53,742 nucleotides of DNA from Myxococcota bacterium (GCA_038520555.1 JBCBLB010000001.1:1-53742), one strand, 5' to 3'. Shown: positions 39,091 to 47,123, numbered from the stretch's first letter. A program made the numbers and translations. Notes: generated by a model not told the origin, from the sequence alone.

Positions 39091-40305
39091 ATGGCAGACG
39101 ATGTTCAAGAAATCCAGAATGTTTCATACGCCCTGGATGAATTGGCCTTGCATCAACGCGCATGGTTCTGGCTGTGTCCACAGCGAGATGCCGGGCATGC
39201 GCGACTGGTCATCACATCGATGGAGAGCGATCCCAACATGCTCAAGCTCCAACGTCAGGTCGGCGGTGTCCGACCTCCGGAGAACGGGCAGATTTTTATG
39301 GGGATGCTCGGAGTGGATCATCAAGGCCGGTTGAACCTGGCTGCCCCGAACCTCTCTGAAGAGAGCTTGATGGCCGTCGCAGATTGGACGCGACGACATC
39401 ATGAACGCTTCCCCGGGCTCGCTCGGCTGCGCGGGCTGACGATGCGAGACACCCAACCCGATGGTACGGTCCGCGCGCTGTATGATTCACCGGCGGCCTG
39501 GGCAGATGTTCCCGAGCGACCCGCACCGGGCAGCGTCCCCTATGGGGCCCGGCAGCTGGCAGACATGGAAGAGGAAGGCGCAGCCTGGTTCTGGCTGACC
39601 GGCAATGGCCCGGGCGGTCAGCCAGCGATGGTCATCACCGACTGTGCAACCGATCCCAACGGCGAGCAGTTCCAGGCGCGCACCCGGTGGCTCCGCTCTC
39701 CGGGCGACGTCGACACCGTCAGCGGCATCGCGACGGTTCGATGGGACGGGCGACGGCACCTCAACCTCAACATCGATGACCTTGAGCGCGCGACCGCTCT
39801 GGTTCAGCGCACCCTCCGCGGACAACCCGGCCTCGATGAGTTGCACATTGTGCAGCTTCGTGATGGCAAACCCATCCGCGTCCAGCCCATCACGCTTCAA
39901 CCACACAGCCCTGATCTGCGCATACAGAACCAGGTGTTGGCCGATCTGGACGAAGCCCACCCGGTCTGGTTCTGGTTTACGGACCGCGATCGTGAACACC
40001 GACCGCTCCTGTTGCTGAACCCAGATCGGAACGCGCTCAAAGCAGCGGCGATGGAGCGCACAGGAGAACGATCCGGAATTCGAGGTCGGATGGTCTTAAC
40101 GTCAAAGGGCTACATCGATATTCAGCTGCGAACCATGTCCAAGCCGCTTCTCACCCAGCTCGCGGCCTGGGCCAGCGCCCACGTTTCGCGCTGGCCCGCG
40201 CTCCGGCGGCTCGCAGGAAGCCGGATCACAGTTCGCGATAAGCAAGGGAAAATGGTGGATCGTTACAAAAACGATGACGCCTGGAGCAGCCTGAAAGAAG
40301 GCTGA
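39091..40305 (+). CDS. Orphan protein A (404 aa): three tandem copies of an unrecognised ~120-aa module
   Basis: GGAGG precedes ATG 39091. There is no signal peptide. The repeats each start with a WFW motif (aa 25, 166, 293) and share hhhIT..DP, G.a.v..G...L.L and W..H..R(F/W)P.L.RL.G....RD..G..V..Y....AW. Confidence 0.85.
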   Translation: MADDVQEIQNVSYALDELALHQRAWFWLCPQRDAGHARLVITSMESDPNMLKLQRQVGGVRPPENGQIFMGMLGVDHQGRLNLAAPNLSEESLMAVADWTRRHHERFPGLARLRGLTMRDTQPDGTVRALYDSPAAWADVPERPAPGSVPYGARQLADMEEEGAAWFWLTGNGPGGQPAMVITDCATDPNGEQFQARTRWLRSPGDVDTVSGIATVRWDGRRHLNLNIDDLERATALVQRTLRGQPGLDELHIVQLRDGKPIRVQPITLQPHSPDLRIQNQVLADLDEAHPVWFWFTDRDREHRPLLLLNPDRNALKAAAMERTGERSGIRGRMVLTSKGYIDIQLRTMSKPLLTQLAAWASAHVSRWPALRRLAGSRITVRDKQGKMVDRYKNDDAWSSLKEG

Positions 40306-40337
40306 GCTTCCCCAACCCCATCCGCTCTGGAGATGAG

Positions 40338-44543: not shown

Positions 44544-44669
44544 ACGCCGATCCGTTGGAATCGGACACCTTACAAATGGAGCGCCTGTCCTAATGGACGG
44601 TCGATGCCCGTCCGCTTGTGAGCAGTGAAGGCTTCCCACCCTCAACGCTCACTCGCCGAGAACCAGTCC

Positions 44670-47123
44670 ATGCCCAAGTCTACGCGCCTCCTGTTTGGAG
44701 GCTTGCTCTCGATCGGGTTGTTCAGCCTGATGACGTCTTCACCGCTCGCTCCGCAGGAAGACGCCTCCGCCCCAGATACGACCCGCCATACCGATTTGTC
44801 CTCAGGGCCCGGATCCATCGCAGCCGTTCCGATCTCCCCTGTCCCCTTCACCGGCGATCGCGGTGTTTCTGTCTCCTCGTCGACGATCCAGGTGATGCAA
44901 ACGGTTCAGCAGGCCTGGATCGCGGATCAAGCGCTCATCCGCCCCACAGACGCTGCGTCGTTGGAGCGCATCCTGGCCACGTGGCCGGTCGATCTGATCC
45001 GTGACAGCCAGCACAGCGGCCTGGCGGTCGTCACCGTGCCGGATGGGCTGGAAGCGTCCGAGTTCATCGATGCGTTGGGCCTTGAAGGCCTTATCGCTGA
45101 GGGCGCGATGCATGGCCGCATCGTCGGCGCGAGCGCGGAGCGCTCGCTCGTCGACATGCAGTGGCACCTCGGCACCGCGGATGTACGCAGTGATACCGGA
45201 GATGACGCGCTGGAGCGTCTGAACCACTACACCGTCGCCGTCCTCGACACCGGCGTCGCCTATCAGGATGACGGGCGGTATCGGGCAGCCCCGTCCCTGC
45301 TCGGGTCCACCATCGTGGCGCCCCATGACTTCGTCAACGGCGATGGTCAAGCCTATGATGACCATCAACATGGCACCCACATCGCCAGCGTGATCGCCTC
45401 CAACGGATCGGTTCAGGGCGTCGCGCCAGGCGTGAGCCTGATGCCGTTGAAGGTCCTCGATGAGAACAACTCCGGCTACGAGATCGATCTCATCGAGGCC
45501 ATCTACCACGCCGTCGACAACGGCGCGGACGTCATCAACATGAGCCTGTCGTTCGGCCTGAAGTATGTCCCCAGCGCGGCGCTGCTCGATGCCCTCGACT
45601 ACGCCGACAAGGCAGGCGTCATCATGGTCGCAGCATCCGGCAACGACGGCGCGAAGAAGGTCGCATGGCCCGCCAGAAGCCCAATGGTCATCGCCGTTGG
45701 TGGGCGATGTGATGTCACACTGAAAGACCACAATGGCCAGACCTGGGACGTCACGTCCGAGGCAACCTACGCAAACACGGGCCCAGCGTTGGACCTGACC
45801 GCACCCTCAGGGTGCCTGGACCAGGACCTCAACAGCGACGGCCGGCCAGATGGCATCATCGCAGAGAGCATCTCTCTTCAACGCCCCGAGCAGATCGGCT
45901 ACTGGGCCTATGCCGGCACGAGCCAGGCCGCCGCGATGGTCTCTGGAACCGTGGCACGCATGCTCGCCGACGGGGTCCCGCCTCAGGACATCACCGCGGT
46001 CCTTCACAAGGGCGCAGAAGATCCACAATCTCACTGGATCTTCAACCTCGGGCTCGGCATCGGCGCGCTCGATGTCTACAAGACACACCAGGAGATCGAG
46101 ATTCTCGATCTCCCAGACAACAACACCGATGATGACGATGATGACGATAATGAGGGGCTCAACCGTCTCCACTTCGGCGTCTCGATGATGCCGTACCTTC
46201 GCGACAACGGGGACGGGACCGTCTCCCCGTCTGCACAGATCCACCTCGTCGAGACCGAGGGACGCAACTACCAGGGTCAGCTCTTCCTCCGGCTGATGGG
46301 CGACACCGACGACGACTTCTCGTGTTACGTGTCGAACTTCTACGGACAGTGCGACTACATCGGCGACCCGGTCCCTGCGCTGGTGGACGGAGTCCCTGCG
46401 CCGCTGGTCTGGCAGTTCTCCGTCGAAGCGCTCGTCACCCAGGAGAACAGCGTCTATCGCCCAGAGCGGATGATCTATGGGTCTCCAGAGCTGGAGTCCG
46501 CGGTCTCCGCGATGGGAGCCGATCCATCAACGCAGTCCGCCATTCTGGGCTTCCACTGGCTCCCCGGTGATTCGGACCTCGGCCCGCTCGCAGAGTCCTT
46601 TATGGCGGTGGACACCGGGACCGGCATCGCCACCAGCCCGTTCGGCGTCTTGATGACCCCACCGGCGATCCTGCCGACCTTCACGGCCACAGCCTTGAAC
46701 TTCGGCACGAACGGAACCGGCATCGCCACCAGCCCCTTCACCATCCAGCTGCTGCAGCTGCCGCCGTTTGACCCCGTCAGAAAACGCGGCCTGAAGGCCT
46801 TCCCCTCTGGGATGAACCTCGCAACCCTTGATGGGACCGGCATCGCCACCAGCCCGTTCGGTCCCATCCGCGTCCTCACACCCCCCATGCCCGGTCCGGT
46901 CAACCCCGGCATCACCCAGCCCATCATGCTCGGCAGCGGGCTCATCGGCGGCGTCCCCGCCGAACAGATCGCAGACTCTGCGCTCGCCGCAAAGATCGCC
47001 GACGGAGGCTGGGTCAGCCTGGACGGGCATCAGGTCGCGTCGAGCATCGCCGCCAGTAGCCTGTACCCAGCGATCGAAACCAACGGCTCGTCCAGCACCG
47101 GCGCAGCCCCAATCGATCCCTGA
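44670..47123 (+). CDS. Secreted subtilisin-like (S8) serine protease with a repeat-bearing C-terminal extension
   Basis: ATG 44670 is followed by a signal peptide (LLFGGLLSIGLFSLMTSSPLAP). The catalytic triad contexts are VAVLDTGV, HGTHIASVIA and GTSQAAAMVSG. A poly-Asp run (NNTDDDDDDDNEG) and 3 x GTGIATSPF are present. Confidence 0.9.
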   Translation: MPKSTRLLFGGLLSIGLFSLMTSSPLAPQEDASAPDTTRHTDLSSGPGSIAAVPISPVPFTGDRGVSVSSSTIQVMQTVQQAWIADQALIRPTDAASLERILATWPVDLIRDSQHSGLAVVTVPDGLEASEFIDALGLEGLIAEGAMHGRIVGASAERSLVDMQWHLGTADVRSDTGDDALERLNHYTVAVLDTGVAYQDDGRYRAAPSLLGSTIVAPHDFVNGDGQAYDDHQHGTHIASVIASNGSVQGVAPGVSLMPLKVLDENNSGYEIDLIEAIYHAVDNGADVINMSLSFGLKYVPSAALLDALDYADKAGVIMVAASGNDGAKKVAWPARSPMVIAVGGRCDVTLKDHNGQTWDVTSEATYANTGPALDLTAPSGCLDQDLNSDGRPDGIIAESISLQRPEQIGYWAYAGTSQAAAMVSGTVARMLADGVPPQDITAVLHKGAEDPQSHWIFNLGLGIGALDVYKTHQEIEILDLPDNNTDDDDDDDNEGLNRLHFGVSMMPYLRDNGDGTVSPSAQIHLVETEGRNYQGQLFLRLMGDTDDDFSCYVSNFYGQCDYIGDPVPALVDGVPAPLVWQFSVEALVTQENSVYRPERMIYGSPELESAVSAMGADPSTQSAILGFHWLPGDSDLGPLAESFMAVDTGTGIATSPFGVLMTPPAILPTFTATALNFGTNGTGIATSPFTIQLLQLPPFDPVRKRGLKAFPSGMNLATLDGTGIATSPFGPIRVLTPPMPGPVNPGITQPIMLGSGLIGGVPAEQIADSALAAKIADGGWVSLDGHQVASSIAASSLYPAIETNGSSSTGAAPIDP
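46617..46861 (+). repeat. Three near-identical nucleotide copies encoding GTGIATSPF
   Basis: GGGACCGGCATCGCCACCAGCCCGTTCGG at 46617-46645 is identical to 46833-46861. The core ACCGGCATCGCCACCAGCCC also occurs at 46716-46735. Confidence 0.9.

Follow-up and report, generated by a model that had tools for sequence, protein, structure and literature searches.

A conserved pair of Myxococcota genes, A and B, with variable neighbours: a possible polymorphic cargo system

The stretch of DNA analysed here, 53,742 nucleotides from a Myxococcota bacterium (GCA_038520555.1 JBCBLB010000001.1:1-53742; hereafter, the window), carries at positions 39,091–47,123 four genes, denoted A, B, C and D, which an original prediction, made from the sequence alone, had regarded as a single orphan operon and as the best candidate for an undescribed system. 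Comparison with 11 further distinct loci with flanking DNA revealed that the unit of conservation is A-B rather than A-B-C-D: exactly one B-type open reading frame (ORF) adjoins A in all 11 of these loci, whereas neither C nor the S8 protease (D) nor the STAND regulator encoded upstream of A recurs beside A-B in any of them. Assessed by its gene neighbourhood, the proposed four-gene unit accordingly came apart, with A and B staying together and C and D left behind. We consider that there is about an even chance that the A-B core represents a polymorphic cargo (effector) system, in which the B core would serve as a handle, A as an adaptor or chaperone and C as the local cargo.

The association between A and B is close at most loci. 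A hidden Markov model (HMM) of the B module detects B beside A in 10 of the 11 other loci; the remaining neighbour, a 361-amino-acid (aa) protein of locus L016, is missed by this HMM and is B-like by architecture only. The gaps between the two genes are usually 10–95 nt, and at L001 the orientation is divergent (Table 1). In L009, which lies on a 4x-coverage contig from the European Nucleotide Archive, B is seemingly frameshifted (3436–3723), with the N-terminal third of the module in another frame, probably as the result of an assembly error.

Table 1. Features around the A-B pair in the window and gene order at the 11 other A-B loci
Feature	Position	Strand	Description
Regulator	35861..38935	-	Winged helix-turn-helix (wHTH; Trans_reg_C) + AAA_16 + TPR, divergent from A
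Intergenic region regulator/A	38936..39090	.	Promoter-like site and the GGAGG ribosome-binding site of A
Gene A	39091..40305	+	404 aa; ORF
Gene B	40338..41264	+	308 aa; ORF
Gene C	41286..44543	+	1085 aa; ORF
Gene D	44670..47123	+	ATG start; S8 subtilase, Pfam Peptidase_S8
L001			A divergent from 1378-aa B-fusion (coiled coil), then 862-aa protein, atypical Hsp100
L003			A, then 751-aa B-fusion (C-terminal part of no known type)
L005			A, then B fused to Peroxidase_2 (E 7e-16)
L006			A, B (334 aa), then 413-aa protein with weak RelA_SpoT (E 0.02) and Tas1 (E 0.17) matches
L009			A, B, 1866-aa helical-repeat protein with terminal HExxH domain, then CpXC
L010			A, then 967-aa B-fusion with nucleotidyltransferase (NTase)-like motif
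L011			534-aa transmembrane-hairpin protein, A, then B (315 aa)
L012			A, B (331 aa), then 415-aa protein
L014			619-aa HExxH protein, CpXC, A, then B (392 aa)
L016			Four-module A, divergent B-like protein (361 aa), then 794-aa protein
L019			A, B (310 aa), then 183-aa and 204-aa proteins

Alignment of the cores from 10 loci showed that B proteins can be aligned over ~250 residues and are unrelated beyond that point. The shared core consists of a module of ~115 aa with a net charge of +10 to +18, a linker with a net charge of -7 to -17 that contains an 'sFLs.E' motif, and a helical stretch conforming to 'L.qAR.ELA....G.dPFp..G..ls.E...LL'. In the window, the basic module occupies residues ~1–115 of B (net charge +18) and the acidic linker residues ~116–200 (net charge -16), followed by a helical segment with the conserved motif of the type 'RQAR.ELA...G..PFP'; the protein is 35% identical to the N-terminus of the 1378-aa fusion of L001 (E 7e-43). 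The cores of the 10 loci matched no Pfam family and no relative in the PDB, and no NCBIfam match was obtained for the B of the window. The B module had been described as a fourth, divergent copy of the module that makes up A. Profile–profile comparison with the A modules places WFW of A against FYF of B in the same register in all three cases, at E-values of 2.5e-4 to 5.7e-3 and probabilities of 6%–43%, and an HMM of the second A module matches the B proteins of L012, L014, L011 and L005 (E 6.6e-6 to 6.5e-3, the search space being small). These comparisons are weak in score but agree in register, and homology of the two modules is, on them, likely, but not established.

In some loci, very different C-terminal regions are fused to the B core; in others, the core is part of a short protein (308–392 aa) flanked by unrelated large proteins encoded separately, and the L001 protein, although a long fusion, also retains a large neighbour. 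Fused and separate cargo are equivalent: residues 387–955 of the L010 fusion are 31% identical (E 1e-64) to a free-standing protein of L016, which is encoded there after A and the B-like gene. Across the loci, a constant N-terminal region is thus followed by unrelated C-terminal domains, the arrangement by which polymorphic systems are recognized.

Hints as to the nature of the cargoes favour effectors or toxins, given the matches resembling RelA/SpoT homologues (RSH) and Tas1, the HExxH domain resembling anthrax lethal factor (ATLF; a weak match, E 0.0027), the NTase-like and GNAT-like motifs, the transmembrane hairpins and the very long helical-repeat proteins. The NTase-like motif ('GS..LTSDYD') and the GNAT-like motif were recognized by eye. 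In L005 (9627–11702), the B core is fused to a Peroxidase_2 domain with the Cys-ligand motif 'CPFLNLSANHG'; this family, of the heme-thiolate chloroperoxidase/peroxygenase type, is mostly fungal. The HExxH domain of L009 (4683–10985) and that of L014 (5718–8254) are each followed by a CpXC zinc-ribbon protein, and the two CpXC proteins are homologous (E 5e-62). HExxH and CpXC move as a cassette, which is located on different sides of A-B in the two loci, and CpXC could be an immunity protein or a chaperone. A literature search on 'CpXC' and on polymorphic toxins in Myxococcota returned nothing relevant.

In the window, the variable slot 3' of the short B is filled by C, which, judged by its position and sequence, would be the cargo particular to this locus. 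The earlier description of C as a 1085-aa coiled-coil protein with a Gly/Ala-zipper amphipathic core is compatible with its composition (Pro-poor and rich in Ala, Glu, Leu, Gln, Lys and Arg), with its helical, coiled-coil-like character and ~3.5-residue periodicity over most of the length, and with the presence of one Gly/Ala-rich, moderately hydrophobic segment at residues 621–640 (Kyte–Doolittle score 1.66). It is plausible that C is membrane-active; a role as pore-former or translocator, as had been proposed, is possible, and C would then be one of many alternative cargoes and not a core component. A word-indexed homology search recovered no homologue of C but C itself, and its sole PADLOC match, to JetC, is of the coiled-coil type (17 bits). 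Gly/Ala-rich hydrophobic hairpins also occur in the helical cargo-slot proteins of L001 and L011, which are unrelated to C; the 862-aa protein of L001 was considered as a homologue and dropped, since BLASTP of C against the cargo-slot proteins of these two loci found no similarity.

The constant partner, A, is made up of three tandem copies of an alpha/beta module of ~125 aa (residues ~1–141, 146–270 and 273–404), as had been recognized from the start: with profiles built from 89 family members, hhalign relates the modules to one another with probabilities of 99.1%–99.8% and E-values of 6e-19 to 9e-30. AlphaFold2, run with the same alignment, predicts three repeats of one unit for the whole protein (predicted local distance difference test score, pLDDT, 95; predicted template modelling score, pTM, 0.80) and models module 1 alone with a pLDDT of 97.5 and a pTM of 0.90. 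In the predicted model, the unit runs helix, hairpin, helix, hairpin, long helix, short helix, hairpin, and the short helix is missing from module 2. The near-invariant positions are Trp, Phe, Leu and Gly residues of the core and no conserved residues have a catalytic appearance; the nature of these positions, together with the repeat organization, suggests that A is a binding or scaffold protein rather than an enzyme.

No family in Pfam, NCBIfam, PADLOC or PHROGs was found for A, B or C, as had been claimed, and neither A nor C has a meaningful sequence match in the PDB. The profile of the A family likewise found no sequence relative in the PDB, and the structure of A found nothing in BFVD. 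Secretion chaperones and adaptors (DUF1795/Eag, DUF4123, DUF2169, CesT/SycE-type and Lap) were not among the Pfam and NCBIfam matches of A, nor were they among the Foldseek matches in the PDB for the whole protein or a single module. In the predicted model, the A module thus appears to be a well-defined domain with no confident known relative.

An exhaustive HMMER search with a profile of A and P0003 against 1.84 billion representatives retrieved 299 proteins (clusters) at E ≤1e-3, 126 of them at ≤1e-30; the word-indexed search had found one relative. Among 160 family sequences (150 listed matches, P0003 and further cluster members), 104 have three modules and seven have four, and the remainder are mostly shorter, resembling fragments at contig ends. 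The four-module subfamily (L016, 2105–3733; P0086, P0087, P0091, P0092, P0113 and P0142) carries its extra copy at the N-terminus, and this copy is module-1-like. All names available read 'hypothetical protein', and the organisms named are without exception metagenome-assembled genomes (MAGs) of Myxococcota; several loci come from marine TARA assemblies, and two MAGs each contain at least two paralogues of A in different 50% clusters. The viral contigs and plasmids searched contained no match, and a phage or plasmid origin was dropped on that account. With hypothetical annotations only, no family and no confident fold match, the view that the system is undescribed was upheld.

We propose that the ~250-residue N-terminal core of B, with its basic alpha/beta module, acidic linker and helical segment bearing the PFP motif, would be a common handle, either fused to a variable C-terminal domain or present as a short protein that would tether a separately encoded, adjacent cargo. 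A would be the dedicated partner of the B core, binding it as an adaptor or chaperone and either stabilizing the B-cargo complex or passing it to a delivery route, and the third slot would be interchangeable, filled in the window by C. The earlier suggestion that A and B act as chaperone or adaptor partners is retained in this form, because A-B is conserved and the third slot varies, and is abandoned insofar as it tied them to a fixed C. On this reading, the cargoes would be effectors and would be exported. Several observations weigh against this proposal. A, B and C have no signal peptides, as had been noted at the outset, and no secretion-system gene was found in the 53.7-kb window or in the ~10-kb flanks of the related loci, the linkage to such genes being read from flanks only, on short contigs. 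The sole AAA+ candidate, an Hsp100-like protein of L001 described below, fails the ClpB and ClpV cut-offs; immunity genes that are obvious or consistent do not follow the cargoes; and the fold of A, as compared by Foldseek, is unlike those of known secretion chaperones and adaptors. Several cargo labels come from sub-threshold matches (E 0.0027–0.17) or from motifs seen by eye, a heme-thiolate peroxidase would be an odd toxin, and the binding of A to B is putative.

The same absence of signal peptides and of nearby secretion genes would be expected if the system acted inside the cell that makes it. Under this alternative, which we hold to be unlikely though it deserves serious attention, A-B would be an intracellular conflict system of the abortive-infection (Abi) or stress type: A would be a sensor or inhibitor that restrains the B-linked effector until a trigger, for example, a phage, frees the variable effector (membrane-disrupting, RSH-like, NTase or protease) within the producer. 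A constant partner combined with variable effector domains is typical of defence systems, the missing immunity genes fit self-targeting effectors held in check by A, proteins with transmembrane hairpins and RSH-like proteins are among the cargo types, and a STAND-type gene adjoins A in the window. The output of that STAND protein, however, is a DNA-binding wHTH, and conservation with A-B does not extend to it. Furthermore, PADLOC yields no match for A or B and just the 17-bit coiled-coil match to JetC for C, the flanks show no clustering of other defence genes, the viral contigs and plasmids searched are devoid of the A family, and helical-repeat cargoes of 1000–1900 aa and a heme peroxidase would be unusual as Abi effectors.

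The apparent distant relationship between the B module and the A modules raises a different option, in which the two would combine into a hetero-oligomer, such as a pseudo-four-module unit, and so anchor diverse enzymes and coiled-coil proteins at the membrane, the cell pole or a cytoskeleton-like filament, with no export involved. The existence of four-module variants of A, the long coiled-coil and helical-repeat proteins among the cargoes and the strongly basic B module (+10 to +18), which could bind acidic membranes or nucleic acid, are all compatible with such a scaffold or localization device. Nevertheless, the extreme diversity and rapid turnover of the cargoes are more in keeping with conflict systems than with housekeeping scaffolds, the genes are spread patchily and in multiple copies among MAGs of one phylum, and the toxin-like hints (Tas1/RelA_SpoT and the ATLF-like HExxH domain) point elsewhere, so that this device is, in our judgement, quite improbable.

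Less credible still is the arrangement originally put forward, namely, a single regulated membrane-active module in which C would form pores or act as a translocator, with A and B serving it as chaperone or immunity proteins and D as a processing exoprotease; of this we have strong doubts. Its appeal lies in the layout of the window and in two features of the proteins, the Gly/Ala-rich hydrophobic segment of C and the signal peptide of D. The positions of the four co-directional, tightly spaced ORFs were recomputed and agree with those first given, as do the spacers of 32 (A-B), 21 (B-C) and 126 nt (C-D, measured to the ATG of D; a longer ORF with a GTG start at 44625 is an alternative). Likewise, Shine–Dalgarno sites are located where they had been reported before A (GGAGG), B (GGAGA) and C (GGAGAAGAG), with just GAGA before D. 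The 126-nt gap and this weak ribosome-binding site set D apart, however; none of the 11 other A-B loci has C or D, no homologue of C was detected and the cargo slot is filled elsewhere by unrelated proteins. Within the C-D spacer (44544–44669) lie two short inverted repeats, CCGAT...ATCGG and GGACG...CGTCC, that lack a T-tract; they were not called in a terminator scan and could indicate a boundary of a transcript or a site of processing. A promoter-like site (38946–38974, + strand; a match to consensus only) lies 5' of A. The A/T-rich codons attributed to B and C were not borne out: GC content at third codon positions is 0.75 in B and 0.74 in C, equal to that of the regulator (0.75) and above that of A (0.68). 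The low GC of B and C stems instead from second codon positions (0.36–0.40), because of amino-acid compositions rich in Glu, Lys, Gln, Ala and Leu, and horizontal transfer was rejected as its cause on that ground.

Finally, we find it scarcely believable that A is a bacterial actin binder of the gelsolin/ADF-H type and A-B an effector pair aimed at the eukaryotic cytoskeleton, even though gelsolin (7p2b_B) heads the Foldseek matches of whole A in the PDB (E 5.6e-4), actophorin, an ADF-H protein, gives the best single-module TM score (0.31–0.33; E 0.17), the profilin sequence is weakly matched (E 0.076) and the helix–strand order of the module presumably resembles ADF-H, because the TM scores (0.14 for the whole, ~0.3 for a module) and probabilities of ~0.3 or less are at chance level, the family profile has no PDB relative and the profilin and gelsolin folds differ, making the hints contradict each other. 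The gelsolin/ADF-H/profilin fold was dropped on the result for a single module, which found no match at E 1e-3 (best E 0.035), and the Foldseek comparison that had been suggested for an AlphaFold model, carried out here for A, returned no convincing known fold.

The remaining genes of the window and of the related loci can be considered in their own right. The identification of D as an S8 protease with a signal peptide was well founded: it matches Peptidase_S8 (PF00082; E 1.4e-36, 126.7 bits versus a cut-off of 21.8), the Asp-His-Ser triad motifs are intact (DTG, HGTH and GTSQAAA) and residues 7–26 form a hydrophobic, signal-like segment. D thus shares with the S8 family the catalytic domain, the triad and the signal-like segment, and differs from it in a long C-terminal region without a family match, which contains an Asp run (NNTDDDDDDDNEG) past the catalytic domain and three 'GTGIATSPF(G)' repeats, each followed by a Pro-rich stretch (window 46600–47000, residues ~650–760). 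As for its supposed role as the processing protease of the system, no S8 gene stands beside A-B elsewhere and the gap to C separates it from the other genes; D is most readily seen as a secreted protease that is independent of the system, a neighbour only.

The divergent wHTH-STAND gene upstream of A is present as described, with Trans_reg_C (E 9.5e-9), AAA_16 (E 3.2e-6; 28.2 bits, under the Pfam cut-off of 32.6) and TPR_12 (E 1.3e-16) domains, and its product follows the STAND/SARP-like pattern of an OmpR/PhoB-type wHTH, a P-loop NTPase and a TPR array. The wHTH starts at about residue 82 (MAEIVTFGPFRLEL...), and the listed TTG start is probably too far upstream, in which case the true intergenic region to A would be ~400 nt. 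This protein may control the A-B locus here, whereas STAND regulation as a feature of the system finds no backing, the upstream regulator being different in every locus, for example, a hybrid kinase with AraC in L006 and LolA-like and LysR genes in L003. In L001, an atypical Hsp100/Clp-type double-AAA+ ATPase of 1079 aa is encoded at 1–3007 (- strand), 3' of the B-fusion and the 862-aa protein. It lies far under the ClpB, ClpA and ClpV cut-offs, and its assignment to ClpV of a type VI secretion system (T6SS) was rejected or, at best, inconclusive (227 bits versus a cut-off of 885); the protein could be a dedicated unfoldase. The window also encodes a large pentapeptide-repeat protein (15018–16748), an arylsulfotransferase (ASST; 25102–26646) and a 559-aa leucine-rich-repeat protein (29556–31235), as well as, at 47329–52203 (- strand), FG-GAP and PKD-like proteins with a weak match to myxosortase-dependent peptidases. 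These neighbouring genes fit an origin in a large-genome Myxococcota.

Among known systems, the closest published logic appears, by analogy, to be that of T6SS effectors and secreted adaptors of the RIX class, in which a basic N-terminal domain marks polymorphic effectors and some members carry separate cargo (PMC10435454). Like B, RIX proteins, and MIX, FIX and PIX proteins more broadly, have a basic N-terminal domain without a signal peptide ahead of diverse C-terminal domains, and the RIX tethers that enable delivery of a neighbouring cargo parallel the coexistence of short B proteins with separate cargo and B-cargo fusions. The likeness is architectural only, with no sequence or family relationship and with no dedicated MIX, FIX, RIX or PIX models applied. 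Unlike RIX, the B module is Lys-rich and followed by an acidic linker within a core of ~250 aa that includes a helical motif, and B is always paired with a three-module A, a kind of partner that RIX lacks; moreover, RIX occurs in vibrios and A-B in Myxococcota MAGs, with no T6SS gene in the window or the ~10-kb flanks.

The putative role of A has its counterpart in effector chaperones and adaptors (Eag/DUF1795, Tap/DUF4123 and DUF2169 of T6SS, class I chaperones of type III and LXG-Lap of type VII secretion systems): a non-catalytic protein is encoded beside the effector and would bind its constant N-terminus while the toxin end varies. In contrast to these, A is a 400-aa triple repeat and not a small dimer, it has no match to them by family or by Foldseek, and its module is seemingly related to that of its client, B. 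With the Rhs, CdiA and LXG polymorphic toxins, the B system shares a constant N-terminus, a swappable C-terminus, several paralogous loci per genome and toxin-like hints in the cargo, but it has no recognizable trafficking domain, signal peptide or PAAR/VgrG/Rhs element, and no consistent downstream immunity gene, with CpXC accompanying the HExxH cargo only. The components are new, and the logic that we ascribe to them would be a variant of the one found in polymorphic effectors that have a marker at the N-terminus and a partner; unusual are the triple-repeat partner, which appears to share a module with its client, and the conserved basic–acidic dipole of the handle.

The Myxococcota are predatory and produce bioactive proteins prolifically; to our knowledge, next to nothing is known of how effectors are delivered by their uncultured marine members. 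The A module, which has a confident predicted fold, no confident match in the PDB or BFVD and no entry in Pfam, and the B core would together provide a search key, with whatever is joined to a B core, or encoded next to one, counting as a candidate effector. This key already picks out the heme-thiolate peroxidase fusion, the HExxH proteins with their CpXC partners and the RSH-like and NTase-like proteins, along with some that have no detectable relatives. More speculatively, and as an outcome that we would not expect but find worth stating, A and the B core may constitute a protein-targeting route specific to Myxococcota, in which A, as a triple-repeat receptor or adaptor with a novel fold, would recognize the related basic module on its clients and steer unrelated enzymes and membrane-active proteins by the dozen to an apparatus for export or injection, or into prey cells in the course of predation. 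If so, the B core would be a new signal for secretion or delivery, with which hundreds of unknown effectors could be mined.

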